Positions 6,692-23,735 are shown, counted from the first letter of the stretch. The stretch is 32,000 nt of DNA from an uncultured archaeon (GCA_964648855.1 CAZYLT010000020.1:15183-47182), one strand, 5' to 3'. Notes: generated from the letters alone by a model not told the origin. Program-made: numbers and translations.

Positions 6692-6823
6692 GTATTACCC
6701 ATGAGAGGCCCAACTCATCAAGTTTCCGCCCTAATTAGATAGAGGAGAACTGACGAAGAACTTTAATAACTGTGAACAACCCCCAACTTGCTAAGCGCTG
6801 CCAATTCATAGGTGGAAATACAA

Positions 6824-7390
6824 ATGGTAACAGCCCTGTTCAAGGTGGTACTCATGGGTGATGGAAGTGTTGGAAAGACCAGTCTCCGTCGTTGCTACAT
6901 GGGTGAAGGATTCAAGGCTCAGTATATGATCACCATCGGAGCGGATTTTGCAGTCAAGAAGATGCAGTTGGAAGGCGGACATGACGTGAGCATTCAGATT
7001 TGGGACTTGGCAGGTCAGGAGCACTTCAAGAGCGTTAGGTCAACCTTCTACAAGGGGACACAGGGTGCGCTTGCGGTGTATTCCACAGTTGAGAGGCAAT
7101 CATACGAGAACATCAAGAAATGGTTGGACGAGTGCTGGACCAATGCCGGGAAGAAGATTCCCATAGTTCTGATTGGCAACAAGATTGACCTTAGACAACA
7201 ATTCGAGAACAACCCCGCCATGAAGCAGACCATTGTCACCACTGAAGAGGGACAGCGGCTGGCTGATGATATAGCATCAAACGGCGTGCATACGTCATTC
7301 ATTGAAACGTCTGCTAAAACTGGTGAAAATGTTGAAGCAGCCTTTCTAGAGCTTGCAATAAAGATTCTTGAGGCTGGAGGCTTGGCCTAG
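6824..7390 (+). CDS. Rab-like small GTPase (Ras superfamily)
   Basis: G1 GDGSVGKT, switch I TIGADF, G3 WDLAGQ, G4 NKID, G5 TSAK; no C-terminal prenylation cysteine; ATG 6824 follows GGTGG. Confidence 0.93.
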   Translation: MVTALFKVVLMGDGSVGKTSLRRCYMGEGFKAQYMITIGADFAVKKMQLEGGHDVSIQIWDLAGQEHFKSVRSTFYKGTQGALAVYSTVERQSYENIKKWLDECWTNAGKKIPIVLIGNKIDLRQQFENNPAMKQTIVTTEEGQRLADDIASNGVHTSFIETSAKTGENVEAAFLELAIKILEAGGLA

Positions 7391-7481
7391 TCAAGCTTTC
7401 AACTTGTTTCTGTCTGTCTTCATAATGTTTTTAGATGCCCCCAAATCAGTCAATAATAGCATTGATTCTGCGGTGACTTGG

Positions 7482-8609
7482 ATGGACGATAATCAACTCT
7501 CATTGTTCCTACAAAGAAAAACATTGAAACCTGAGGCTGAACATGGTGGCGAGATTACCAGACGATTCTCAATGAACAAAGTTGGCAGGATGTTTGCTGC
7601 TGCCATGCAAGATAGAACCATCCGCCTCTATGATGCCAAAACCTGCCAAGAGATGCAACGTGTACAGGATGAACATCTAACGACCTCCATTGATTTCAGT
7701 CCCCGCGGAGACATTGTTGCAACAGGAAGCGTAGGTCGCCTAGTCAAACTGTGGGATATCAAATCTGGGAAATTGATGGGCACTCTGGAAGGGCATGAAT
7801 ATCCTGTTCTCTCCCTCTCATTCTCACCTGATGGTGATAAGTTGGTCTCGGGGAGTGGCGACACTACACTACGAATTTGGGATGTTGATAACCTTCGCTT
7901 TATTCGAGAATTGAAAGGACACACACTCTATGTTGTCAGTTGTGATTGGGACCCAATACACGACCGGATTGTATCATCATCAATCGATTCAACCATCCGC
8001 GAATGGAATGCATCCACTGGCGAGTTGCTTGCCGAGCATGACGACCATCGAACTGCTGTTCATCAGGTCCTATTTAACAGGGAAGGCTCACTTATGGCAT
8101 CTGCCTCCTCCGATCACAGCATAATCCTGTGGAATACGGAAGGCAAACTTGACTCTCAAGAGACCCTCGTGGGACATAATGAGGAAGTTCGTGCCATCTC
8201 CTTCAGCAACAATGGAAAATATCTGGTTTCAGGGTCTAGTGACAAAGAACTATACGTCTGGTCAATAGAGGATTATGGCATCAAAGGTCAAGCGAGAACT
8301 ACGGGGGAAATTGATGGCTTAGAGTGGTATCCAAATGAGCTTGCATTCATAAGTTCTGACGGTACTGGTGCAATCATCCGCTGGGATGTCCGCGAACTGG
8401 AAGCTATGCTGAGCCCGTTTCAGAATCTTCTTGATGAAATCAAGGCAAATGATGATGAGAGCAAGAAGCAGGAATTCATTGAACGGTTCAACGAGATACA
8501 GGCTCAATATGATGAAGAGGCATTACGCGACAAACGGCTGTTCTATATCATGTGGCAATGCAAGCGAGAACTCGGCTTACTAAAAGGGAAGGTTCGAAAA
8601 AGAAGATAA
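7482..8609 (+). CDS. WD40 repeat beta-propeller protein with a C-terminal helical domain
   Basis: About 7 GH...S.S.D.T.R.WD-type repeats; start placed at ATG 7482 after the SD-like GGTGA. Confidence 0.92.
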   Translation: MDDNQLSLFLQRKTLKPEAEHGGEITRRFSMNKVGRMFAAAMQDRTIRLYDAKTCQEMQRVQDEHLTTSIDFSPRGDIVATGSVGRLVKLWDIKSGKLMGTLEGHEYPVLSLSFSPDGDKLVSGSGDTTLRIWDVDNLRFIRELKGHTLYVVSCDWDPIHDRIVSSSIDSTIREWNASTGELLAEHDDHRTAVHQVLFNREGSLMASASSDHSIILWNTEGKLDSQETLVGHNEEVRAISFSNNGKYLVSGSSDKELYVWSIEDYGIKGQARTTGEIDGLEWYPNELAFISSDGTGAIIRWDVRELEAMLSPFQNLLDEIKANDDESKKQEFIERFNEIQAQYDEEALRDKRLFYIMWQCKRELGLLKGKVRKRR

Positions 8610-8643: not shown

Positions 8644-9174
8644 CTAGTCTGTCTTTACTGAATCTACCATCACTTCACAGAGATTTTTGTAAGCATCCTC
8701 TACGTTTTGTCCCGTAAGAGCACTGGATTCAACGTAGATATGACCGTGTTTTTCTGCCCACTCTTTTCCCTCTTGGGTTGTGACAACCCGGCTCTCTTCA
8801 AGGTCTACTTTGTTGGCCACAACTATGAGGGGGATCTCCCGACCCAGATTCTTGAAGCATTCGTTTTTCCAATTTTGGATATTAAGAAATGTTCTTCGCC
8901 TAGTGACATCGTACACGAGCAATCCACCTCTGGCTCCTCTGTAGAAACCCTGCCTCACTACTTCAAATCTTGGCTGGCCTGCTAAATCCCATACTTGCAG
9001 TACCACATTGGCATCTCTATCGGGCATCTCGACTCTTTTGATGGCAAAGTCAGAACCAATAGTCCGCTTGTACTCCGATTGGAAGTGCTGTTGTGTGAAT
9101 TGAACAGTAAGTGCGGTTTTTCCGACAGCACCGTCGCCAAGCATGACGATCTTGAAGCGATATTCAGCTGACAT
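8644..9174 (-). CDS. Rab-like small GTPase (Ras superfamily)
   Basis: GDGAVGKT, TIGSDF, WDLAGQPRF, FYRGA, NKVD and SSAL motifs; no CAAX/CC tail. Confidence 0.93.
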   Translation of the reverse strand: MSAEYRFKIVMLGDGAVGKTALTVQFTQQHFQSEYKRTIGSDFAIKRVEMPDRDANVVLQVWDLAGQPRFEVVRQGFYRGARGGLLVYDVTRRRTFLNIQNWKNECFKNLGREIPLIVVANKVDLEESRVVTTQEGKEWAEKHGHIYVESSALTGQNVEDAYKNLCEVMVDSVKTD

Positions 9175-9351
9175 CACAAGACACTTCCTGTTGCCTGAGG
9201 GTATAGAGAAGACCTATTAAAATATCGTATGGCAAATGGCGTTCTGAGTAAGAAATCAAGTTGAAACTTTAATAAACTCTAATGACTTTGAAATCCATAC
9301 TGGACTATTGAAATAACGACTAGTGCGGCAAGAAATGGGGGATTTCAAGAA

Positions 9352-10204
9352 ATGGCGGTTGTAGCTCCTAACTATAGTCTATTCACAGCAATTATCCTGT
9401 TTCTCATCTTCATCCTTAATTTCAATCCATGGAATAGGAAGCTCAGAAATACCCGAAATTCGCTCTTATTGATAATCGTGACAACATCGCTAGCAATACC
9501 GCTTCAAGTCTGGTTCAACTATGATTTGGCTGCATACAATACAGGCGACACCTATCTATTGAATCTCCACCTAAATGCTTCGCTATTGCCGGGTGAGAAA
9601 TATGAAATCCACCACGTGTCAAATTGGTATGCAGAGAGGGGAGCTCTCCTGGAAATATCAAATGAATCCCAAGGCATCGTATTCTACTTAGTCGATGAGA
9701 ATATGCGGGGTACACGTTTCAACGAAATTCGCGTGAACGAATCCTGGTTCCGGGTTCTCCAATCCCTATGCTTTGTTTCGATTCAAACTTCCCTATTATC
9801 GTACATCCCTGTTTCAAATAGCCAACTGGACGGTTTGCTTCACTAATCCACTTACAAATGAAACAATACCTCTAAACGTCCGTGGAATGTGGATGGAGGA
9901 CTCAGAAGATCTCGCCCGTTGGAGGGTTTATCTTCCACGTACACAACCTGTTGTTGCACTGTTATGTCTGTGGGTATTCGTTCCATTGATTCTAATGGCG
10001 ACTGAAAATATCAGTACACATCAATTGGCTCAGAATCTACGTTTATTGATTGCAGCCTTGTTTTCGGCTGTGATTCACTTGCTTCTTTCTCTTCCGTTTA
10101 TCAGTAGTATCATTTTCTTCGGTTTTTACCTTGTCTTTCCATTACCAATCGTTACTCTGGTTCTATACTACATCATCAAGAAACAAGAAGATACAACCCA
10201 GTGA
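9352..10204 (+). pseudogene. Multi-pass membrane protein split by a +1 frameshift near 9737-9770 (pseudogene or sequencing error)
   Basis: ORFs 9352-9846 and 9773-10204 overlap; the second frame is open from 9737; joined they give TM-TM / glycosylated loop / three TM helices. Confidence 0.6.
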
Positions 10205-10419
10205 ATTAGATTAACGAGTCGAAGAAGGATTCTTGCTAATCAAAACCACTTGGCAAGAAGGAAATTCAAATGTTTCATCAAGGATTGCCAGGTATTCAGC
10301 GATTTAGGCAGCCCTGGGGACTCGAAGAGTAGTCGTAGTCAAGACCCATTGATTACACTATCATTTAATAGGGATATGGGATTCTTTTCTAATGTTGTAC
10401 GATTCTGGAGTGTAAGCGA

Positions 10420-10806
10420 ATGGAACGACCTGATTATAGCACACTTGCCTCGATCCTTGAAGAGATGAACAAGGAGGGCGAATTTACCGCTTCTGTGCTT
10501 GCTAGAGATGACGGGCTACTCATGGCATCTGCAGCCTCTCCGAAGACAAACCGAGAGGTTGTTGCTGCAATGTCTGGGTTTGTTGCCTCAACTGTGGAGC
10601 GCATGCGCGACGAGTTGGGTCTGGGCCAACTAAGGGATATCTCTGTGCGCTGCTCAATGGGTAAGGCTGTCTTCAAGAAGATTGCATCACAAGGGGAACA
10701 AGCACTCCTTATCGCCGCTATCATGCCAAGGAGCGTACGCTATCATCTTCGACCCATTGGCAAGGCTGCAACCAAGATAAGGTATGTCCTTGGGTATTCT
10801 GACTAG
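10420..10806 (+). CDS. Roadblock/LC7 (MglB-like) domain protein
   Basis: ASVLARDDGLLMAS...VAAMS...ELGLG.L pattern; 128 aa. Confidence 0.88.
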   Translation: MERPDYSTLASILEEMNKEGEFTASVLARDDGLLMASAASPKTNREVVAAMSGFVASTVERMRDELGLGQLRDISVRCSMGKAVFKKIASQGEQALLIAAIMPRSVRYHLRPIGKAATKIRYVLGYSD

Positions 10807-10897
10807 CTGCCACTGCCAAAGCTCATCCTCGCAAAAGATTCAAGTGATATAGTCACACAGTAATTCTACGCTTATTTCGGTCCAGGAGTGCGCTCTA

Positions 10898-11224
10898 TTG
10901 GCAAAAGGGGACAAAAAGAACTCGGAAGATGACACCAATGCTACCGTTGAGATAGTCTTCTTCAAGTCCAATACGTGTGCTTTCTGTCCGAGAGCCGAAG
11001 AAGTGATAACGGATATGATGGAGGATTTTGGAGAGTCCGCCCTTGAACTAACGATTATCAACGTATCTGAGAATCCAGGGGCAGCAGAAGAGTATGGAAT
11101 CTTCGCTTTGCCAACCACGATGATTGGCGGGGTATCAGTGACAGGTATTCCAGAGCCAGAAATATTGATGAAGATGATTCTCGGTTGTAAAATCTCCAGC
11201 AAGAGAGGTGTATTCAGTGAGTGA
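10898..11224 (+). CDS. Thioredoxin-fold protein with CAFC motif, KaiB-like in its central part
   Basis: CxxC motif, INVSENPGAAEEYGIFALPT (cis-Pro loop); SD CAGGAG and TTG start; stop overlaps the next gene. Confidence 0.85.
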   Translation: MAKGDKKNSEDDTNATVEIVFFKSNTCAFCPRAEEVITDMMEDFGESALELTIINVSENPGAAEEYGIFALPTTMIGGVSVTGIPEPEILMKMILGCKISSKRGVFSE

Positions 11225-11963
11225 ATTCGAAATCGAACGCGTAAAGACAGGTATCACGGGACTAGATGACCTGATTCAAGGAGGATTCCCCCGTGGCGAT
11301 ACCATTCTGATTGCAGGGAAGGCAGGAACCGGAAAGACAATTTTCGTCAATCAGTTTCTGTATAAGGGTGTTGTGGAATATGGTGAGCCCGGCGTATTAG
11401 TCACCCTAGAAGAGCCTTCCAGAATGATCAAGAGAAACATGATGCAATTCGGAATGAACCTGGATAAAATCATCGGGGAGGAATTACTCAGCATCGTTGA
11501 CCTCTCTCCCGCCAAAGAAGTCAAACGTGTTAAAATTGGCGAGTATCCTTCTTTTGACCTCTCAGGATTAGAGGCAATAATTCTCAATCATATGAATAAG
11601 ATAGATGCACAACGGGTCGTCATTGATACGCTGTCCATTCTTGCATACAAGTTTAGTAGCAGAGACATCCTTCGTCAGGAGTTCTTTAAACTCGCGGCGA
11701 AACTCACAAAGGACGGTGCCACCCTCCTGTTGACAAGTGAAATCCCTGAGCATAAGGGCGGACTCGGTGTCTTTGACATTGAGGCCTTCTTGGCATCGGG
11801 AGTGGTTGTCCTCTATAACGAAAAAATTAGTGATACATCTAGGTCCCGTAGCATTGAAATCCTAAAACTGCGTGGTACTCAACACAGCTCTCGAATACAT
11901 TCGATGCGAATAACCGATGAAGGTATTCGAGTCTACCCTGGTGAAATCAGTCCGGGACGATAA
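11217..11963 (+). CDS. Single-domain KaiC-like (RecA-superfamily) ATPase, CI-like
   Basis: TGITGLD..GGFP, Walker A GKAGTGKT, catalytic LEE, VVIDT, LLTSE, KLRG..H; GTG start after SD GAGGTG. Confidence 0.92.
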   Translation: MSEFEIERVKTGITGLDDLIQGGFPRGDTILIAGKAGTGKTIFVNQFLYKGVVEYGEPGVLVTLEEPSRMIKRNMMQFGMNLDKIIGEELLSIVDLSPAKEVKRVKIGEYPSFDLSGLEAIILNHMNKIDAQRVVIDTLSILAYKFSSRDILRQEFFKLAAKLTKDGATLLLTSEIPEHKGGLGVFDIEAFLASGVVVLYNEKISDTSRSRSIEILKLRGTQHSSRIHSMRITDEGIRVYPGEISPGR

Positions 11964-11984
11964 TTCCCCCATGAGGCATGACCA

Positions 11985-12698
11985 ATGAATACATCCGCCC
12001 AAGGAAGCGAATCGGAAAGCCCAGCACGGGTATATCCGATGATTAGCGACTTGGTCGATTTTGGCCAACTCACTCAATTGTCTTTCATGTTGCTAGGGCC
12101 TATTGGGTCCGGAAAGACAACTTATGCAGAAGCGTTTCTTGCAGAGGGACTCAGACTAGGATTTCCCGCAGTATTTGTTACAACGGATGTATCTCCCCGA
12201 GTCATCAGAAATGATATGAGCCGATATGGTTGGTCAATCGAAGAAGGAGAGGAAACGGGACAGTTTGTCTTCATCGATGGCTACTCCGAACGGATGGGGG
12301 CTCCAAAGGCAAAGTCCACGCATTCACTTGCCAAGATTGATGACGTAAGCGAGCTGGGAATTGTGCTCTCTGAGGTCCTAGAAGATATGGTTGTCGCTAG
12401 GGTGGTCATCGACAGCCTCTCCACCTTAGTGCTCCACTCGGGACCAACAGCCATGCCTCGGTCGGTCCAGCGGCTAGCGGGGCGGCTGAAGCAAAATTCC
12501 CACAGTATCATGTTTGTTCTTGAGGATGGAGTTCATGACGATAAGACCTATGCAACATTTTCTTATCTTGCTGACTCGGTTCTTCGATTCAGAATTGAAC
12601 ATCAGGGAGATGTGTCGCGTCATCAAATTCGAATGGAACGAATGCGGGGCAGTGACGCTTCAAGAGACTGGCATGACTTCGTTATTGAGAGACCGTGA
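11985..12698 (+). CDS. Second single-domain KaiC/RAD55-like ATPase, divergent (lacks the EE pair)
   Basis: Walker A GPIGSGKT, VTTDVSP instead of EE, FIDGYS, VIDSLS, YLADSV, RMRG. Confidence 0.85.
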   Translation: MNTSAQGSESESPARVYPMISDLVDFGQLTQLSFMLLGPIGSGKTTYAEAFLAEGLRLGFPAVFVTTDVSPRVIRNDMSRYGWSIEEGEETGQFVFIDGYSERMGAPKAKSTHSLAKIDDVSELGIVLSEVLEDMVVARVVIDSLSTLVLHSGPTAMPRSVQRLAGRLKQNSHSIMFVLEDGVHDDKTYATFSYLADSVLRFRIEHQGDVSRHQIRMERMRGSDASRDWHDFVIERP

Positions 12699-12752
12699 AA
12701 GCTTAAAACGGAAAGATACTGCTTCTGAGTCAACCGTCAGAGGAGAGATACA

Positions 12753-15053
12753 GTGGAGTCGCTACTTAAAGCAGCACTAAGAGAGATACTATGTGCTTCG
12801 CTCTCCCTTGATGATGGCCTCACTACTATTCAGAATCTTGCAGTTGGAAATAAAAGGAACTCGGATTTGTTTTTTGAAGTAGCGAGAGCAATAGAAGAGA
12901 TACTTCTGCGTCGTCCTGCTCCTGCCAGTGCCAAACTCACAGAATTGGAGGTACGCCTGTCAACTCGCAAGGACTCAACACTCCGTGATATGATTATGCT
13001 TCTTGATACGAGATACACCACTGTGCATTGCAGAGCAGAAGCCGAAATTGCTCCTGATATGGATGCAATCCCCCGTCTTCTTGAGATATTGGCTGATCTA
13101 GAGCAGGGCATATCAACAGCAATTAGCCTTAATCTCAGACCTCTGCTTCCTTTCCTTGCTGATGAACTCATAATGACACTTGAGGCTCTTCATACCCGTT
13201 CGCATGAGGCATCAATTAGATTGGCATCATATGAGGCGCATCACACTGCATGGTTATTGTCAGAATCCGGTATTTTCGATTGTGCAGATGCGATTCTGAA
13301 TCAACTGATGAAAATATCTGAGCACATGGGATTCGACAATCTCAGTTTTGAATCCACACTCGACGAGGCAGCTGTGCTCACAGAGCTCGGAATGTATGAT
13401 GAATCAAGGAAATTGCTACTCGATTTGCTCAGTCGGGCGGAAGAGGGAAATGATCCTATTCGGTTGGCAATGGTGAAGCTCCAGAAGGCAATAAATGAAA
13501 CCCGTGATGACTCGATATCTCATGACCAAGCTAGAAATACAGCCAATATAGCGGCAAGAATGTTCCAAGATATTCTTGATTACGGGGGTTTCTCAAAGGA
13601 CGGCCTGGGATTGGTACATCTCGTAATCGGCTCTAACATTCTGGCCAGTGGTTGGAGAGAGGCTGTGCCTGAGGCTTTAGATGGACTTGAGAATGCCCTC
13701 AATGTCTTTGGGTCTCTTGAAGAGATGAATGAAACCCAAAGAATACTCCACTTCAGAACCCTTGCTGGACTTGGCTTTTCGTATGGTATGATGGGGAATG
13801 ACGACAACATAGTCAAGGGTCTTGAATATCTGGAGAGAGCCAAGATGGTTCTTCAAAAAACCGGGGACCATGATGAGATATTCGATATTGAAATTGCCAG
13901 ATGTAATCATGCAATCGGATGGTTATGTCTCTCTTGTGAAAGCGAAGAACATCTTGACCGGGGAAGAGAAGCATTTGAAAGAGCAATCGAAGCTCGAGAG
14001 CAATTCTTGGAACAGGGCAGAGTATCAGAATTAGTAGTTCTTGGTACAAAACTCGGGAAAACATTGCTTGAATTAAGAAATGATGACGAAAAAGACGCGC
14101 AAGGAATTGACCAAATCCAAGATGTCTTGGTCCGCTATGTCCCTCTCTTTCCAATTGACCCCCGCTCCTTCACCGAAATAGCAATTGCAACATATGACGT
14201 AGTATGGATATTATTCAGACACGGCTTGACTCCTTCTCAGAGACTATTGCGTTTCTTCGACGATGTAGATAGGATGCTCCGCGATACAAGAGTTGGGGAG
14301 GACTCATTATTCATTCAGGGCGTATCCCTCATCGTTCCTCTGCTTAATGGCTCTTGGTCGCAACTATCTCGGCGAGCAAATGACATATCGAATGAAAAAT
14401 CAGAGCTATCGGAAGTTGCGAAAGTGTTGGGCTGTCTTGCACATTCAAGAATCAACTTGGAAGCTACCAATCTAGAGGCTGGTCTAAGTATCCAACCAGA
14501 AATAAGTCAAAATGCAATCGAATGTGATAGTCTTCTCGGCAACTATTGGATAGGTCAAAGGTCATTAGCAGCTACAGTCAAGTCGTATTATGAGAACAGA
14601 GATTATGAAGAATTAGCCTCTGGCCTATATGGAGCGTCCCAACAGCTAAAGGCAGTAGGTTCTGTTCGAACCAGTTTCGCTGAGTCAAGTGAATTCATCA
14701 CTGCTACGGCAGTTTCGCTAGCAGAAGTTTTACTGAATACTGCAAAGGCTCTGTCTTCAACCTACTCGATTGAACTCGACGATGAACAAACAATCGCTAC
14801 GGAATCCATTAGAGAAGTAAGAAATGTAGATTTTATTTTGCCTGATGATTGGTTGGGCCTACTTAAGATAACTAATTCTTATGTTAGAATGATAAAAGCC
14901 TCCGATGGAACTCACGCCTTGTCATACTTGAATGCTGTCTTCTCGAATATCTCCAGAGCCCTAAGAATGATGGATAATATTGCACTCATTGACCGTCGAG
15001 TCCTATCCCGTTTAGGGGAGGCAATGAATCGAAGATATTATCTCCGAAAATAG
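12753..15053 (+). CDS. Large all-helical TPR-like protein
   Basis: 766 aa, Leu/Ala/Glu-rich; TPR-like units such as LAGLGFSY...GLEYLERA and NHAIGWL...AFERAIE. Confidence 0.7.
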   Translation: MESLLKAALREILCASLSLDDGLTTIQNLAVGNKRNSDLFFEVARAIEEILLRRPAPASAKLTELEVRLSTRKDSTLRDMIMLLDTRYTTVHCRAEAEIAPDMDAIPRLLEILADLEQGISTAISLNLRPLLPFLADELIMTLEALHTRSHEASIRLASYEAHHTAWLLSESGIFDCADAILNQLMKISEHMGFDNLSFESTLDEAAVLTELGMYDESRKLLLDLLSRAEEGNDPIRLAMVKLQKAINETRDDSISHDQARNTANIAARMFQDILDYGGFSKDGLGLVHLVIGSNILASGWREAVPEALDGLENALNVFGSLEEMNETQRILHFRTLAGLGFSYGMMGNDDNIVKGLEYLERAKMVLQKTGDHDEIFDIEIARCNHAIGWLCLSCESEEHLDRGREAFERAIEAREQFLEQGRVSELVVLGTKLGKTLLELRNDDEKDAQGIDQIQDVLVRYVPLFPIDPRSFTEIAIATYDVVWILFRHGLTPSQRLLRFFDDVDRMLRDTRVGEDSLFIQGVSLIVPLLNGSWSQLSRRANDISNEKSELSEVAKVLGCLAHSRINLEATNLEAGLSIQPEISQNAIECDSLLGNYWIGQRSLAATVKSYYENRDYEELASGLYGASQQLKAVGSVRTSFAESSEFITATAVSLAEVLLNTAKALSSTYSIELDDEQTIATESIREVRNVDFILPDDWLGLLKITNSYVRMIKASDGTHALSYLNAVFSNISRALRMMDNIALIDRRVLSRLGEAMNRRYYLRK

Positions 15054-15057
15054 CGAA

Positions 15058-17151
15058 CTAGAATTCTTCATAGGGTTTGCTGCCAACAGGTCTATATTGT
15101 GTCGGCTTTGCGCCCCAAGTAACCCAGCCCGAAGTTTCGGTTCTCATTTCATTTGCCAGACCAAATGATTCACGCACTGGGATTTCGGCTTCTATCCTGT
15201 ATAGTGCCTTTTCCGAATCGATTTTCAAGACCTGTCCCTTTCGCCTGGCGAGAATTGATGTCAATATGCCAACGTAGTCCTCTGGGGCAGTTATCTCCAA
15301 TCTAGTCCACGGCTCCATTACAACGGGATCATCCGACATTATACTGTTTCTCAGAGCCTCAACAAGTGGTTGTGTCACATCCCGCCATGATGTTTCTGGG
15401 CTCTCAACTTTCAGTTTTGCCTTCTGAATTGAAGCTAGAAGCATTCTCATTCGCTCCCCTTGGACAGGCCCGTTTCGCGTGACAATTCTGAAGCCTTCTT
15501 TCACCCATTCGGCAATGTCACTATACGGGTCAATAGTACCGGTTGTATCAACCAAGTAACATTGAGCCTGTTCATCCTTCTCTATCACAGTTCCTTTGAC
15601 ATCTTCTAGTGCATCATTTTCAATGAGATTCGCTTTCACCCAGAACCTGCTTGTGTCCTCTGAACCTCCCTGAGCGGTTTTCGCCCTCGCTGTGAGCTGC
15701 TCCTTCAGCACAACCATTGGAGTACCTAATCGTAAGTGTACTCCCAATCTGGTTAGTTTTTCCACAGCAATCTCAACATGGAGCTCTCCAGCGCCTGAGA
15801 GCAGCATCTCCCCTGTTTCTGGATTCAATTCAAATTCTAACGTTGGGTCTGTACTCACAAACTCCTGAATGGGCTCCTGTATCTCGGAGAGTTCAGCCAA
15901 TCGTCTAGGTTCAATTGTGTATGTGACGACTGGCTCAGTAGGATATTGAAGCGCAATCATCGGCTCCAACTCTGCAATATTCGGGCTGACAAGCGTATCA
16001 CTGATTGAAACGTCTTTTATCCCTGTGATGAATGCCAGATTACCGGCGGGTACCTCGTCAAGGGCAACTCGAGTCTTGGACATGTACACTCCAACTTGGA
16101 GACTCTTGTCCTTCTTTCTAGTCCTACGAGTCAGCAATGGCTCCCCTCGCCTGAGGACCCCAGAGAACACTCTAACAGTTGCCACGGTACCAGCGTGTCT
16201 GTCAGGTTGCACATCACTCACCAGCAGGATACACGGACCATTTGGGTCACAATTCATTAGGCTCTTGCCGCTGTCAGATTGAAGGTCGCCATCCCAAAAT
16301 GCTGGAATTCTGTACTGTTGAGCATCAATCGGGTTGGGCACTGTCTTAACAACTGAGTCTAGTACAACTTCTGCAATGGGAAACTTCTCTTCAAGTTCTT
16401 CTTCCGTTTCATTCCTGTAGGAGTCTACTACTTCTTCCATCAATTCCATGAATACGTCGGCTAGAGATTCAGCATCTGATTCATCAGCTCGTGCCTTCAA
16501 GGTTTCAAGTCCAATTGCCCACTTGTCAAGCGCCGAACCGATTGAGAGCGAGTTCTTGGGAAAAGAAACCTCCCACTTTTCAAGAATTTCGTCTTCAAGA
16601 TATTTTCCTAGCATCGCGTTAAATTCACGGGCTACTTTGTTCACCTCTTCGGCAACTTTCCGAGCCTGTAATCGTCGTTCGGTGACCAATCGGTCAACCT
16701 TGTTAATGAACAGAACAGGTCTAACTCTCTCCGCCATTGCCTGCCTTGTCACAGTCTCTGTCTGAACCATCAGCCCCTCGATGACATCAATGACAACAAT
16801 TGCCCCATCAGTAAGTCGCAGACCTCGTGTTACATGGCTCGAGAAATCAATGTGTCCCGGAGTGTCAACAAGATGAACAAGATGCTCCTTTGATTCGAAT
16901 TCATGTACAAGAGAGATGCCAGATGCCTTTATTGTAATGCCACGTTCCTGTTCAATGAGGTCGTAATCCATCATGCGAGCCGACGCTGCAATTTTGCTCG
17001 ACATGAGACCTGATGCTGCGATAAGAGAATCCGTCAGAGTTGTCTTGCCATGGTCAATATGAGCAATCACAGTACAATTGCGGATTCTCTCCCGGTCATT
17101 GATGAGATTGACAACCCGTTCGTTGACGAATTTCTTATACAAGTGAGACAC
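15058..17151 (-). CDS. Elongation factor 2 paralog (aEF-2p) lacking the diphthamide motif
   Basis: AHIDHGKTT, ERGITI, DTPGH, NKVD, GAGELH and MEP...GL..EMR..TSG motifs; the domain IV tip reads KLKVESPETSWRD with no HRG. Confidence 0.9.
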   Translation of the reverse strand: MSHLYKKFVNERVVNLINDRERIRNCTVIAHIDHGKTTLTDSLIAASGLMSSKIAASARMMDYDLIEQERGITIKASGISLVHEFESKEHLVHLVDTPGHIDFSSHVTRGLRLTDGAIVVIDVIEGLMVQTETVTRQAMAERVRPVLFINKVDRLVTERRLQARKVAEEVNKVAREFNAMLGKYLEDEILEKWEVSFPKNSLSIGSALDKWAIGLETLKARADESDAESLADVFMELMEEVVDSYRNETEEELEEKFPIAEVVLDSVVKTVPNPIDAQQYRIPAFWDGDLQSDSGKSLMNCDPNGPCILLVSDVQPDRHAGTVATVRVFSGVLRRGEPLLTRRTRKKDKSLQVGVYMSKTRVALDEVPAGNLAFITGIKDVSISDTLVSPNIAELEPMIALQYPTEPVVTYTIEPRRLAELSEIQEPIQEFVSTDPTLEFELNPETGEMLLSGAGELHVEIAVEKLTRLGVHLRLGTPMVVLKEQLTARAKTAQGGSEDTSRFWVKANLIENDALEDVKGTVIEKDEQAQCYLVDTTGTIDPYSDIAEWVKEGFRIVTRNGPVQGERMRMLLASIQKAKLKVESPETSWRDVTQPLVEALRNSIMSDDPVVMEPWTRLEITAPEDYVGILTSILARRKGQVLKIDSEKALYRIEAEIPVRESFGLANEMRTETSGWVTWGAKPTQYRPVGSKPYEEF

Positions 17152-19994: not shown

Positions 19995-22900
19995 TTGACC
20001 GACATATACAAATCGATTGCTGTTACTATGGATGATATCCGTGCGAGAGAGAAGAAGCTCCCCAAGGTTCGGACAACTCAGGGGACCATGGAATCATTTG
20101 ATGCTACGAAAATCATAGAGAGTCTTATCACCGAAGCACACCTCTCTCGAGCCAATGCACAGCTTATCGCAGTCCGAGTCATGGATCGAATTGTCGCGTC
20201 AGGAATCAAGTTTCTCTCTGGACCGCTTATTCGTGAGATGTGTAACTCAGTTCTAGCCGAGATGGGTTTCGAACAGGAACGGATTGAGTACACCCGCGTC
20301 GGTATTCCAATGTGGGATCTTAATCAGCTCATCAATGATCCAGGTGACCACACATCCAACGCCAATCTCATGAGAAATCCAGAAACCATTGCAAAGCTCG
20401 TGCATGATCAAGTCATGGAACAGCACACATACCTCTCTATCCCCTCTCACCTTGCTGATGCTCATCTTAAGGGTGACATCTACATTAAAGACCGGGAGTA
20501 CTTCTCAACTAGAGATTACTGCGCTACTTGGGACCTTAGACAGGTGCTGAAGCTTGGCATTGCGCCAGATGGACTTGGTGGCATGCACTCAAGTGCTGCT
20601 GGTCCAGCTCAACATCTACATGTTGCGGTGAATCACTCAGCCATCTGGCTGGCTGCAGCGCAGAGTTCGTTCTCCGTTACTCCTGAACAAGAAGTCCTGA
20701 TATCAGACGAGGAAGGGACTCGACTTGTTCCCATCGGCCCTTTTGTGGACAGGGTTATGAAACAGAAGCCATGCAAACAAATTCCGCAGGTGAATGGCGA
20801 GGTTGCTGATACCACAGGGGATGGTCTCTTTACTTATGCTTTCAACCCTGAAACAATGATGATCGAACGAAAGGAGATCAACAGGGTCATTCGTCATCCG
20901 ATATCAGACGATGTGTGCAGAATACGCACTCGTACTGGGCGCGAGATCCGGTGTACAGGTTCACACAGTCTGTTCACGCTTGAGAATGGAAATGTCAAAC
21001 CCATTGCAGTGAACAATTTGAAGGAAGGGGACTTGATTGCAATACCCCGTGTGCTCCCTCATGGAGATGGTCCCAGTACTCTTGATATAGGCCATGCCCT
21101 TCTTGAGCTTGGCGAGGATAAGACTTCTTCTGTATACGTGAAGGGTGTTGCCGATCAGTTGAGCGAGTTGGAGGAATGGGAAAGGAGGCGTAACTCCGTT
21201 TCCCTATCGAAGGTTCGAGACCAGAATTACGATATTGACTTTTCTGGTTCTTCGATAAGTCTATCACGATCATCTTACGAATTGCCTGCCGAGATTGACA
21301 TTAGCACTGAATTATCCCGGTTCTTAGGGTATTTCGCGGCGGAGGGACATATTGGTCTTGATCGTCATAATGAGCCAAATACAATAGTGCTCAGCTTTGG
21401 TGTTCATGAGAAACACCGCATTGAAGATGCTAAGGAATGCATCCAAAATGTCTGGGATGCTGATATCAATGTGCAACGCCCCCACAAGACTGAGCTTCAG
21501 CTTGTTATCTGCAACAAGCTGGTTGCTCTTATCATGACAGAGATTCTTGGAACAGGTCGGAATTCCAAAGACAAGAGGATTCCGCCAGTAGTACTATCCG
21601 GTTCCGCAGAGATCAAGTGGGGATTCTTGAACGGATACTTCTGCGATGGTCATGTACACAGAAGAAGCGTTAAGTTCACTTCGGTCACAGAAGGGCTCAG
21701 TACGGATTTGCTCTATCTCCTTCTCCAGCTGGGTATCATTGCTAGGCAGAGGCCCCATATATCATCAAGGCACAAGCTTGGTAAGCGCACGATACGAGAG
21801 AGTGTTGGTTATCGCACTTCTATCTATGGCCGGGAGAATCTGCAACGTTTCGCAGCGCATATTCCCGATATCACCACTGAGGACTTCCAATACAAGACTC
21901 GACATCTAACAACAACCTCACTTCCTGATGCAATTCCAATTGAGAAAACGAATGTACGAGAACTCATCGACAAGATGGGTGTGCCACATACACATGGCAG
22001 AATACCTAGGATCAATACAATATTCCAGAAGCAGCATATGGCCCCTGGTCTCTTTTGTACTGTTCTCGACCAGTTAGCCGAGTTCTCAGAGACTCCCGTT
22101 GATTACTCGGACGAGATCGAGTCGTTGCGTCATCTTACTTGTGGGGATGTAGCTTTTGACATAGTTGAAGTCATTGAACGAGAGAGCTTCGAGGGTCAAG
22201 TCTATGACTTATCCGTTGATGGTTACGAGAACTTCATAGGAGGACATGGCGGGATAATTCTGCACAATTCCGGAGGGCAAGGATACTTCTTCTACAATAC
22301 ATTCCTGGCTCCGTTTATGGCTGGAAAGTCTTACAAGAAGATCAAACAAGCCGCCCAGCAACTCATATTCACTCTTACACAGCAATATGTAGCACGAGGT
22401 GGACAGGTCATCTTCTCAAGCGTTGACCTAACACCGGGCATTCCCAAAATCATGCGAGATGTTCCAGCTGTTCTTCCTGGTGGAAAACAGACTGAAATGA
22501 CCTATGGTGACTTCGAAGAAGAGGCGAATCAATTCTTCGACGCATTCATGGAGGTCATGATTAGTGGCGACGTCAAGGGGAAGGGCTTCAACTTTCCGAA
22601 ACCAAATATTGTACTAAGAGAAGAATTCATGGGACCGGAATATGATGAGTCCTGGAGAAAGGTGGCAGAGCTCACTGCTAAATTCGGTTCACCATACTTT
22701 GAGAACTACCTCAACTGGCGGTCAAGCATAGAAGCTGGCTGCAGCAGCTGTTGTTCCCATCTTTGGACTGCGAGCAGCGATGAAGAGATGGAGGAATTCC
22801 TGAGCGGAAACATGGTCTTTGGCGCATCTCAAATGGTTACTCCCAACTTCGGGCGTGCGGCCTGGATTGGTCGGAGTGATGAGAACAGATTCCTCGAGAA

Positions 22901-23735
22901 GGTGGACGAGTACATCGACCTGTCCAAAGAGGTTGTTCTAGAAAAGAAAGGAGCCATGGACAAACTCATTGCAAGCGGAAGTGTTCCATTCTACACTCAG
23001 CCCAAGCCAAACGGTGATCCCCTTATCAACATGGAGACCAGAGAGTTCCTGCTCGGGACTGTCGGCTTTGAGGAGATGGCCCACATCATGACCGGTCATC
23101 ACCTACATGAACGCGAGGGAACTCGTTTCGGAATCAAAGTGCTCAAGCATCTGAAAAAGCGGGCAGACGAGTTCCAAGAGGAAACAGGTTTGCACTTTGG
23201 TGTGACACGTACACCTGCCGAGAGTGCCGCTGGTCGGTTGGCACGCAAGGACTATAATTCATATCCGGGTATCAGGAAATACTTGAAGGGCGACATGCCC
23301 AGTGTCTACTACACCAATAGCACTACACTTGATGTTGCCGCAGACTTGCCATTGAGTGACAGAATAAAGAAAGAGGGAATGTTCCATCCGTTCATGGACG
23401 GCGGCGCCCTGACTCACATCTATCTTGGAGAAGCAAATCCTGACCCAGACGCACTCTGGGCATTGACAAAGAAGATTGCAAAATCAACTCTTAATTCATA
23501 CTGGGCGTTCACAAAAGACCAATTGTGGTGTAAGCAATGCAACTACCAGGCTGGTATAGATTGGCGTCACACGAAGTTTGATTCAATCAATGATCTGGAT
23601 AATATTCCCTGTCCCAGATGTGGTTACGTCGGCGTGGAGATTTACTCCCGAATCACTGGCTACCTGCAAGGAACCTCTGTTTTCAACGATTCAAAGAAGC
23701 AGGAATTCATCGATAGACATCGGTACAACATATGA
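19995..23735 (+). CDS. nrdD: Anaerobic (class III) ribonucleoside-triphosphate reductase with ATP cone and intein
   Basis: N-terminal ATP cone, AH..GDIYI.D, YC, SCC, TPAESAAGRLA..D, YYTNS, GG...HI, CxxC...CxxC and glycyl-radical RITGY motifs. Confidence 0.95.
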   Translation: MTDIYKSIAVTMDDIRAREKKLPKVRTTQGTMESFDATKIIESLITEAHLSRANAQLIAVRVMDRIVASGIKFLSGPLIREMCNSVLAEMGFEQERIEYTRVGIPMWDLNQLINDPGDHTSNANLMRNPETIAKLVHDQVMEQHTYLSIPSHLADAHLKGDIYIKDREYFSTRDYCATWDLRQVLKLGIAPDGLGGMHSSAAGPAQHLHVAVNHSAIWLAAAQSSFSVTPEQEVLISDEEGTRLVPIGPFVDRVMKQKPCKQIPQVNGEVADTTGDGLFTYAFNPETMMIERKEINRVIRHPISDDVCRIRTRTGREIRCTGSHSLFTLENGNVKPIAVNNLKEGDLIAIPRVLPHGDGPSTLDIGHALLELGEDKTSSVYVKGVADQLSELEEWERRRNSVSLSKVRDQNYDIDFSGSSISLSRSSYELPAEIDISTELSRFLGYFAAEGHIGLDRHNEPNTIVLSFGVHEKHRIEDAKECIQNVWDADINVQRPHKTELQLVICNKLVALIMTEILGTGRNSKDKRIPPVVLSGSAEIKWGFLNGYFCDGHVHRRSVKFTSVTEGLSTDLLYLLLQLGIIARQRPHISSRHKLGKRTIRESVGYRTSIYGRENLQRFAAHIPDITTEDFQYKTRHLTTTSLPDAIPIEKTNVRELIDKMGVPHTHGRIPRINTIFQKQHMAPGLFCTVLDQLAEFSETPVDYSDEIESLRHLTCGDVAFDIVEVIERESFEGQVYDLSVDGYENFIGGHGGIILHNSGGQGYFFYNTFLAPFMAGKSYKKIKQAAQQLIFTLTQQYVARGGQVIFSSVDLTPGIPKIMRDVPAVLPGGKQTEMTYGDFEEEANQFFDAFMEVMISGDVKGKGFNFPKPNIVLREEFMGPEYDESWRKVAELTAKFGSPYFENYLNWRSSIEAGCSSCCSHLWTASSDEEMEEFLSGNMVFGASQMVTPNFGRAAWIGRSDENRFLEKVDEYIDLSKEVVLEKKGAMDKLIASGSVPFYTQPKPNGDPLINMETREFLLGTVGFEEMAHIMTGHHLHEREGTRFGIKVLKHLKKRADEFQEETGLHFGVTRTPAESAAGRLARKDYNSYPGIRKYLKGDMPSVYYTNSTTLDVAADLPLSDRIKKEGMFHPFMDGGALTHIYLGEANPDPDALWALTKKIAKSTLNSYWAFTKDQLWCKQCNYQAGIDWRHTKFDSINDLDNIPCPRCGYVGVEIYSRITGYLQGTSVFNDSKKQEFIDRHRYNI
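20673..22268 (+). mobile_element. Intein (532 aa) with LAGLIDADG homing endonuclease in nrdD
   Basis: Begins SVTPEQEVLI after extein AQSSF; block B TGSHSLF; FLGYFAAEG and FLNGYFCDG; block F VYDLSV...NF; ends LHN before extein SGGQG. Confidence 0.92.

Follow-up and report, generated by a model that had tools for sequence, protein, structure and literature searches.

Does a thioredoxin gene followed by the genes of two single-domain KaiC-family ATPases encode a timer of the cyanobacterial KaiB–KaiC type, a signalling module of another kind, or simply proteins whose genes lie side by side? The question is raised by a cluster of five genes at positions 10420–15053 of a 32,000-nucleotide stretch of archaeal DNA (GCA_964648855.1, CAZYLT010000020.1:15183-47182), here called the window and numbered from its first nucleotide. 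An initial annotation, made from the sequence alone, had described the cluster as a candidate split, redox-sensing KaiBC-like system composed of a roadblock protein, a KaiB-like thioredoxin, a CI-like and a CII-like KaiC and a tetratricopeptide repeat (TPR) protein, and had placed it in an Asgard archaeon. The host assignment holds: the source organism is represented by a Thorarchaeota metagenome-assembled genome (MAG) that is 94.6% complete, and the closest loci are found in Candidatus Thorarchaeota MAGs. The genome was assembled from microbial-mat metagenomes, and among sequencing runs the stretch is present only in DNA runs of one microbial-mat study. As for function, we consider with moderate confidence that the cluster is an order-wide conserved Thorarchaeota signalling module around a pair of single-domain KaiC-family ATPases; a clock function is possible but is unsupported by this analysis.

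The gene cluster is conserved across the Thorarchaeota

Coordinates re-derived from the open reading frames (ORFs) place all five genes on the + strand with gaps of 91, −8, 21 and 54 nt, in agreement with the initial annotation. The first gene, Robl (10420–10806), encodes a 128-amino-acid (aa) Roadblock/LC7 protein of the MglB type. It is followed by Trx (10898–11224), which has a TTG start and encodes a 108-aa thioredoxin of the MJ0307 type with a CAFC motif, a cis-Pro and a basic C-terminal tail; by KaiC1 (11217–11963), which has a GTG start, the same codon at which the ortholog alignments begin, and encodes a 248-aa CI-like KaiC-family ATPase; and by KaiC2 (11985–12698), whose 237-aa product is a single-domain KaiC-family paralog with T-D-V in place of the catalytic glutamate pair. 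The last gene (12753–15053) encodes a 766-aa, TPR-like alpha-solenoid that is restricted to one family (Thorarchaeaceae-like, f1).

Conservation of the gene neighbourhood had been named beforehand as a check on the proposal, and the cluster proved to be kept across the order. The arrangement (Rab2)–WD40–Rab(−)–Robl–Trx–KaiC1–KaiC2–766-aa gene–EF-2-like(−), with the minus signs marking genes on the opposite strand, is identical in 20/20 loci from 16 genera, and the same order was seen in 59/59 further loci as far as the contigs reach. Orthologs of KaiC2 are present in 68 of the 76 family genomes and those of KaiC1 in 64, and both occur in the one sister-family genome; at ortholog-level scores, neither was found in the ~220 other Asgard genomes searched. 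The arrangement is more than a product of chance. In a relative from the same genus (L183), the ATPases seem to be missing only because the contig ends inside KaiC1, just after Trx.

In the sister-family locus (L087), Rab, Robl, Trx, KaiC1 and KaiC2 are all co-oriented, the gap between Rab and Robl is 46 nt, and KaiC2 directly adjoins the EF-2-like gene, with no 766-aa gene between them. The 766-aa gene is present in 22/24 genomes of the same family, at 39–51% identity, and a search with this query found no copy in other Asgard genomes, those of the sister family included. Since L087 lacks the TPR gene, the core of the module consists of Rab/Robl, Trx, KaiC1 and KaiC2, with the TPR gene as a family-level addition. 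The TPR protein, which had been counted as a member of the system, is therefore kept in the main family but falls outside the core.

KaiC1 and KaiC2 differ at the catalytic glutamates

KaiC1 matches Pfam KaiC with 234 bits. When compared with solved KaiC, it scores 165–182 bits on the CI domain and 63–67 bits on CII, and it carries an insert that matches the CI B-loop in length and position and that CII lacks. The catalytic glutamate pair (E68, E69) is invariant in 51/51 orthologs. The CI scores, the insert of B-loop length and the grouping with CI in phylogenetic trees (described below) bear out the earlier description of the first KaiC as CI-like.

KaiC2 matches Pfam KaiC with 108 bits, with weaker matches to DUF7504 and DUF7090, and its best solved relative is PH0284 (82 bits). 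The Walker A lysine (K44), the Walker B aspartate (D143) and the arginines of an RxR(G/S) motif (R219/R221) are invariant in 56/56 orthologs, and so is T67-D68-V69 at the position of the catalytic Glu pair. Against solved KaiC, KaiC2 scores 44–50 bits on CI and 25–26 bits on CII; in a comparison with 101 two-domain KaiC proteins, the N-terminal domain gave the higher score in 92 (means of 30 vs 14 bits). S193, which is also invariant (56/56), aligns with KaiC S431, the adjacent Y194 with T432, and T188 (52/56) with T426. In the wider clade of KaiC2 relatives, the column equivalent to S431 is occupied by E, Q, N or S.

Neither protein reaches the cut-off of TIGR02655, the circadian KaiC equivalog (174 bits for KaiC1 and 40 for KaiC2, against 546), or that of PRK09302 (207 and 65 bits, against 408). 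A circadian KaiC has CI and CII in tandem in one polypeptide of ~500 aa, with a Glu pair in both domains; here, two separate genes are found, and the Glu pair occurs in KaiC1 only.

KaiC2 belongs to an old clade of stand-alone genes

The initial annotation held that KaiC had been split into two polypeptides, the second of which was CII-like. A HMMER scan of 1.8 billion representatives with KaiC2 returned only four proteins at ≤1e-30; the next relatives are ~36% identical and have in common the motifs T-x-D-x-S-P and D-x-Y-S-W-R-x-G. These K2-type relatives all match Pfam KaiC, and most of them match DUF7504 and DUF7090. Their genes are found in Nanohaloarchaeota, Aenigmatarchaeota, Micrarchaeota, Iainarchaeota, Bathyarchaeia, Nitrososphaeria and Borrarchaeum. 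At most of the 27 K2-like loci outside the Thorarchaeota, a canonical KaiC1-like (K1-like) gene adjoins; the two genes diverge, or they point the same way with K1 first. In DPANN, Nitrososphaeria, Bathyarchaeia and Asgard archaea alike, K2-type genes are found as stand-alone genes, a distribution that rules out a recent fission of a two-domain KaiC. Since KaiC2 sits in this old and widespread clade, the idea of a KaiC split into two polypeptides finds no support here. A K1–K2 pair like that of Nitrososphaerota was also seen on a contig from the same study as the latter that is binned as an Acidobacteriaceae MAG (CAVZMC010000083.1, locus L179); mis-binning or gene transfer could account for it.

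The relationship of KaiC2 to the CI and CII domains was addressed with two trees. The first, a quick tree of 83 rows, contained K1 and K2 of the Thorarchaeota (Thor), non-Thor K1-like and K2-like proteins, and 21 two-domain KaiCs, each divided into CI and CII, that had been chosen by similarity to KaiC1. Support was 99 for K2, 98 for CII and 93 for CI plus K1-like, and only 77 for the partition {K2+CII}|{CI+K1}. For a more careful maximum-likelihood (ML) tree of 76 rows, seven long-branched rows were left out (L186_2412, L182_3204, L150_4001, L132_4001, L128_K1like, P0169 CI and P0169 CII). In this tree, the supports, given as ultrafast bootstrap (UFBoot)/Shimodaira–Hasegawa-like approximate likelihood ratio test (SH-aLRT), were 100/99 for K2, 100/99 for CII, 100/94 for CI and 98/96.7 for {K2+CII}|{CI+K1-like}. 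Approximately unbiased (AU) tests did not reject trees in which CI and CII were held together (p 0.12) or in which Thor KaiC2 and CII were held together (p 0.20). Since K2 and CII are both divergent, long-branch attraction may have drawn them together. By sequence, KaiC1 is clearly CI-like, grouping with CI and with the K1-like genes. On the CII-like character claimed for KaiC2 the evidence is divided: its clade pairs with CII at the support just given, but the profile scores favour CI and the AU tests keep alternatives in play.

The thioredoxin keeps its redox site and overlaps KaiC1

Trx passes the cut-off of Pfam Thioredoxin_3 (PF13192; 33.3 bits, cut-off 24.8) and matches PDB 1FO5, a small thioredoxin of the MJ0307 type, at 4e-12. 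Since its score with TIGR00411 (53.9 bits) is below the equivalog cut-off of 92.75, Trx is a diverged paralog of the MJ0307 type. With the KaiB profile (PF07689) it scores 23.4 bits (23.2 in the whole-genome scan), below the cut-off of 27, and control genomes with an MJ0307-type thioredoxin give similar sub-threshold matches. The source genome contains at least four thioredoxin matches, and the KaiB profile is matched by the Trx of the cluster alone, below the cut-off. The initial annotation had pointed out that no KaiA is present, and no KaiA profile match was obtained in this 94.6%-complete genome either.

An AlphaFold2 (AF2) model of Trx (predicted local distance difference test, pLDDT, 83) has a minimal beta-alpha-beta-alpha-beta-beta-alpha fold. 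The first 50 Foldseek matches to this model are all thioredoxins, and in the VIA structure comparison thioredoxins and fold-switched KaiB were tied. The label ‘KaiB-like’ thus suits the fold, one common to KaiB and all thioredoxins; it does not extend to the family, since by sequence Trx is an ordinary MJ0307-type thioredoxin.

In 36/36 orthologs, C27 and C30 of the CAFCP motif and P72, the cis-Pro, are unchanged, as expected from the earlier remark that the thioredoxin keeps its redox cysteines, and three non-Thor Asgard genomes encode KaiC-adjacent thioredoxins that likewise retain C-x-F-C. The reported overlap of Trx with the first KaiC gene is likewise real. It measures 8 nt here; a 4-nt overlap of the Trx stop with the KaiC1 start is found in 38/50 loci, and in 44/50 no gap separates the two genes. 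Judging by this arrangement of stop and start codons, Trx and KaiC1 are translationally coupled. Conserved cysteines are found nearby in Robl (C78, in 47/49 orthologs), Rab (C167) and the TPR-like protein (C14 and C392). No conserved cysteine was found in the KaiC1 or KaiC2 orthologs, which rules out both ATPases as thiol–disulfide substrates of Trx. Independently of the cluster, a Trx-like domain with 33–36% identity to Trx was noticed inside open frames of ~670–700 aa in Asgard family f27 (genomes G257, G293, G275 and others; e.g. L185:4096-4299).

Parts of the module recur in other archaea

Combinations of the same genes were found well outside the Thorarchaeota. In a Heimdallarchaeota MAG, the genes of a Trx-like protein, Trx, a K1-like and a K2-like protein stand in a row, and in two genomes of another Asgard family a 152-aa ORF is followed by Trx, a K1-like gene and the gene of a RagA-like GTPase. 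The 152-aa ORF 5' of Trx is not detectably roadblock-like (hhalign probability 0.1%). Adjacency of Trx and K1 thus occurs in three further Asgard genomes from two families, with Trx identities of 29–36%. In a further Asgard family, Ras and K1-like genes occur together with two K2-like genes and one GvpD-like gene. In Borrarchaeum, Ras and K1-like genes precede a K2-like gene that is fused to a response-regulator receiver domain (L156:3974-5284). In Aenigmatarchaeota and Micrarchaeota MAGs, the gene of a 383-aa fusion of a KaiC-like domain with an Arf/Ras-like GTPase domain (L128:4734-6263, L132:2409-3931) is directly followed by a Roadblock gene, beside a K2-type gene.

As can be seen from these loci, small GTPase and roadblock genes adjoin KaiC-like genes in several archaeal lineages, which supports the tie between them that had been proposed for the window. 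Since sequence identity is low and the surrounding synteny has decayed, the recurrences count as functional evidence; among the genomic observations reported here they are the strongest evidence that the Trx–KaiC, K1–K2 and KaiC–GTPase/roadblock links are functional.

The Rab, roadblock and TPR-like proteins

The initial annotation had pointed to two Rab-like genes upstream of the cluster as possible outputs. Both are real (6812–7390, + strand, and 8644–9177, − strand), and their products are 39% identical to each other; the WD40 gene and two small membrane ORFs lie between the Rab-like genes and the cluster. The product of 8644–9177 (Pfam Ras, 176.6 bits) matches PDB 7EZB (‘Thorarchaeota Rab’) at 3.3e-84 with ~70% identity and is an ortholog of the crystallised Thor-Rab. 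This Rab-like GTPase is nearest to Rab1, Rab11 and Rab14. Its gene is divergent from Robl in the main family and co-oriented with it in the sister family. Thor-Rab itself comes from contig LRSL01000056.1 of Thorarchaeota SMTZ1-45; it was crystallised, and its GTPase activity was assayed by phosphate release (PMC10933270). That contig (locus L054) carries the whole cluster, and the word KaiC is absent from the paper. The ‘Thor-RB’ of the same paper (PMC10933270) gives only weak matches and is, for that reason, a roadblock protein other than Robl.

Robl passes the cut-off of Pfam Robl_LC7 (PF03259; 27.2 bits, cut-off 23) and has weak PDB matches to archaeal roadblock structures. The 766-aa protein has no match in Pfam, including the TPR families, or in NCBIfam. 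Its AF2 model (pLDDT 88; predicted template modelling score, pTM, 0.77) is an all-helical solenoid with 34 helices. The best Foldseek matches are the long TPR proteins Ctr9, Ski3 and IFT-A subunits (E-values of 4e-6 to 1e-3), comparison with the LGN/Pins TPR domain gave TMt values of 0.6–0.74 in Foldseek, and an Atlas search gave TPR clusters at 0.94. As modelled, the protein is TPR-like at the level of the fold only, and the fold matches are generic and silent on its partners.

Promoter-like elements in the spacers

Three conserved elements were found in the spacers of the cluster. A TATA-like sequence, TTTAATAGG (10364–10372, + strand), lies ~50 nt 5' of the Robl start and is a putative promoter; 5' of Robl in most of 46 loci, TTTAATAGG is present and is followed by a conserved AATGCGCAA. 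The spacer between Robl and Trx contains CAAAAGATTCAAGTGA (10832–10847, + strand; consensus TCAAAACATTCAAGTGA), ~50 nt 5' of the Trx start, which may be an internal promoter or operator. TCAAAACATTCAAGTGA is found in most of 49 Robl–Trx spacers, with an AGGAG Shine-Dalgarno site and then the conserved TTG start further 3'. The third element, GTGAAAGCTTAAAAC (12695–12709, + strand; consensus GTGAAAnCTTTAAAGC), resembles a transcription factor B recognition element (BRE) with a TATA box and is a putative separate promoter in the KaiC2–TPR spacer; GTGAAAnCTTTAAAGC is conserved in ~50 spacers, 30–40 nt before the Shine-Dalgarno site GAGGAGAG and the start codon. The TTAAAA box that had been noted near 12703 is present at 12703–12708, inside the GTGAAAGCTTAAAAC element, and, in line with the suspicion voiced in the initial annotation, transcription of the TPR gene probably starts from a separate promoter. 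A bacterial promoter/terminator scan was uninformative for this archaeon. Apart from their bearing on the cluster, the three spacer elements, situated 30–55 nt 5' of the starts and TATA-like in two cases, could help to define a Thorarchaeota promoter consensus (homologous spacers L033–L091).

A proposed mechanism and its alternatives

How might such a module work? From what is shown above on the genes, their motifs and folds, their conservation and the recurrence of sub-modules, we infer the physical contacts, the direction of signalling and any dependence on redox state or time as follows. The core unit would be Trx–KaiC1–KaiC2, with KaiC1 acting as a complete CI-type RecA-fold ATPase. KaiC2 has lost the catalytic Glu pair but, with an intact Arg finger and intact Walker A and B motifs, would still bind nucleotide. 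The two may assemble as a heteromer (stacked rings or a mixed hexamer), with KaiC1 hydrolysing ATP and KaiC2 serving as a regulatory or phospho-acceptor subunit. Trx, translated together with KaiC1, would dock on the CI-type B-loop face in the manner of fold-switched KaiB or the SasA N-terminal domain. Because neither ATPase has a conserved cysteine, it would be Trx's own dithiol/disulfide state that gates docking. Robl and Thor-Rab could form an MglB/MglA-like pair, as output or input of the ATPase switch, and the separately promoted TPR solenoid may have been added as a scaffold in one family.

Several observations weigh against this scheme. The family synteny block also takes in an EF-2 paralog, a hexapeptide transferase and a WD40 gene; since these are clearly unrelated genes, conserved order within the family alone is weak functional evidence. 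The three promoter-like elements, together with the Trx/KaiC1 overlap, suggest up to three transcription units (Robl; Trx–KaiC1–KaiC2; TPR) rather than one operon. An insert of B-loop length is common to all K1-like and K2-like proteins and is hence non-specific for a KaiB-type contact. Moreover, Trx looks like an ordinary redoxin and could be a mere redox enzyme with an unrelated substrate. A rival reading is that the genes share nothing more than their position. Trx would then be a general or substrate-specific redox enzyme, Rab and Robl would act independently, and the KaiC pair would have a separate role, for example assisting an ATPase of surface filaments or of secretion, in the manner of ArlH, or taking part in DNA transactions as RadA/RadB do. 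The separate promoter-like elements and the Rab gene, which in the main family is divergent and not co-transcribed, agree with such independence, as do the many roles of KaiC-family proteins (PMC4858521). However, the Trx/KaiC1 overlap is conserved, Trx and K1 remain adjacent in the three further Asgard genomes (two families) despite decayed synteny, the linkage of GTPase/roadblock to KaiC, including fusions, recurs in DPANN and in Borrarchaeum, and the window contains no pilus, archaellum or DNA-repair genes. We regard synteny without a functional link as a fairly unlikely explanation of the cluster.

A genuine KaiBC-type timer, be it an hourglass or an oscillator, would assign the part of CI to KaiC1, that of CII, with phosphorylation of S193, to KaiC2, and that of KaiB to Trx, in a slow sequestration that depends on ATP hydrolysis and is entrained by redox state. 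The order Trx–K1–K2 is the same as kaiB–CI–CII, KaiC1 is CI-like and has the B-loop insert, the invariant Ser of KaiC2 aligns with S431 and its Thr (52/56) with T426, the ML tree places the K2 clade with CII (98/96.7), and the Trx model fits fold-switched KaiB. Yet the autokinase/autophosphatase activity of CII depends on the catalytic Glu pair, which is missing from KaiC2, and among K2 proteins at large the S431 equivalent is variable (E, Q, N or S). In addition, the KaiC2 profile scores are nearer CI than CII and the AU tests do not reject the alternatives; the genome has no KaiA and no KaiB above the cut-off; and Trx has a normal, invariant redox site with no sign of the second, ground-state fold of KaiB. 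Such a timer therefore appears quite unlikely to us. A ‘proto-KaiBC’ is a tentative idea that we would still call unlikely: the K1–K2 pair would be an unfused, perhaps ancestral-like counterpart of CI/CII, the redox-active Trx would occupy the position and surface later taken by KaiB, and the resulting ATP/redox switch would control, or be controlled by, Rab via the roadblock protein. Finally, KaiC-domain genes occur in Asgard viruses (PMC13700489) and the combination of an NTPase with a TPR protein is frequent in defence systems, raising the question of anti-virus defence or of another accessory mobile system built on a KaiC-like NTPase. This appears highly improbable: PADLOC gives only mad8 at ~17 bits, a similarity at the P-loop level, and no defence-system match; the cluster is single-copy and occupies a fixed chromosomal place in nearly every genome of the order; its GC content is unremarkable; and it encodes no nuclease or other effector domains.

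Relation to known systems

The signalling module that we favour is a variant of a kind of system that is already known, the archaeal KaiC hub. Inactivated KaiC domains and many partner domains were reportedly described by Makarova et al. 2017 (mBio) under the term ‘signalling hub’. In 2016, attention was drawn to archaeal KaiC genes accompanied by a ‘KaiB-like thioredoxin’, the proposal that KaiC-like ATPases are archaeal signalling hubs is among the work cited in PMC5847659, and bona fide KaiB was found only together with full-length KaiC (Schmelling et al. 2017; PMC5520375). A link between KaiC and MglB in archaea was not found in the searchable literature; nor, in that literature, which did not cover Makarova et al. 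2017, was a fixed Trx–K1–K2 triplet with an invariant redox site and a tie to Thor-Rab, a roadblock protein and a TPR protein. With the archaeal hubs the present module shares single-domain KaiC-family ATPases, a thioredoxin-fold partner gene directly 5', a degenerate KaiC paralog and variable input/output partners. It differs from them in that the partner keeps an invariant CxFC redox site, in that the active and the degenerate ATPase form a fixed, ordered pair, and in its linkage to a eukaryote-like Rab and a roadblock protein, joined in one family by a TPR solenoid.

In the cyanobacterial system, fold-switched KaiB or the SasA N-terminal domain sits on the CI B-loop. The cluster resembles KaiB–KaiC (PDB 5JWO, 5JWR) in the order of a thioredoxin-fold gene, a CI-like domain and a second KaiC domain, and in the CI scores of KaiC1 (165–182 bits). 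In contrast to KaiB–KaiC, it has two polypeptides, of which the second lacks the catalytic glutamates, a partner with CxxC that is below the KaiB Pfam cut-off, and no KaiA. Fold switching, phosphorylation cycling and timing, which characterise the cyanobacterial proteins, were not evident from the cluster. The Elongator Elp4/5/6 heteromeric rings offer another parallel: Elp4 and Elp5 are eukaryotic degenerate RecA-fold ring subunits, and in the cluster an active and a degenerate paralog of one RecA/KaiC fold are encoded together. Among 17 K2-type proteins, 7 have weak Pfam matches to PAXNEB (Elongator Elp4) and 2 to Elong_Iki1 (Elp5). A heteromer of KaiC1 and KaiC2 is, unlike the Elongator rings, only proposed, and no orthology is claimed.

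As in MglA/MglB of Myxococcus and Thermus and in Rag–Ragulator, a Ras-superfamily GTPase gene here adjoins a Roadblock/LC7 gene. The GTPase is Rab-like, however, and not MglA-like, the role of Robl as a GTPase-activating protein (GAP) or guanine nucleotide exchange factor (GEF) is only putative, and we know of no described system of this type that includes a KaiC pair or a thioredoxin. Small GTPases and roadblock proteins of Asgard archaea attract study as forerunners of the eukaryotic membrane and signalling machinery, and to our knowledge neither a partner nor an input is known for any of them. One Asgard Rab already has a published structure and GTPase activity, and for it the cluster supplies concrete partner candidates that can be expressed: Robl, Trx, the two KaiC-type ATPases and the TPR-like protein as a scaffold. 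The cluster is also a tractable case in which to study the role of the many single-domain archaeal KaiC-like ATPases, and to ask whether an active and a degenerate KaiC, paired and accompanied by a thioredoxin-fold protein, function as CI, CII and KaiB do.

Neighbouring genes and minor observations

Upstream of the cluster, the second Rab/Ras-like small GTPase gene (6812–7390) has a homolog 5' of the WD40 gene in many relatives. The WD40 gene itself (7368–8609, + strand) encodes a beta-propeller protein that matches Pfam WD40/beta-propeller families and is syntenic in at least 31/59 loci. Two small, overlapping hydrophobic ORFs (164 and 143 aa; 9352–10204, + strand), which match no Pfam family, lie between Rab and Robl. 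They occur only here and in the same-genus relative L183. The other relatives all have Rab and Robl next to each other in divergent orientation. Since the two ORFs are shared with L183, they are a genus-specific insertion that lies outside the module. On the other side, an EF-2-like paralog (15058–17151, − strand) is convergent to the cluster and is kept 3' of it in all loci, including that of the sister family without the TPR gene. Further downstream, the gene of the anaerobic ribonucleotide reductase NrdD (19995–23735) is split by an intein with a LAGLIDADG homing-endonuclease domain, as recognised by matches to Pfam NRDD, Intein_splicing and LAGLIDADG_3.

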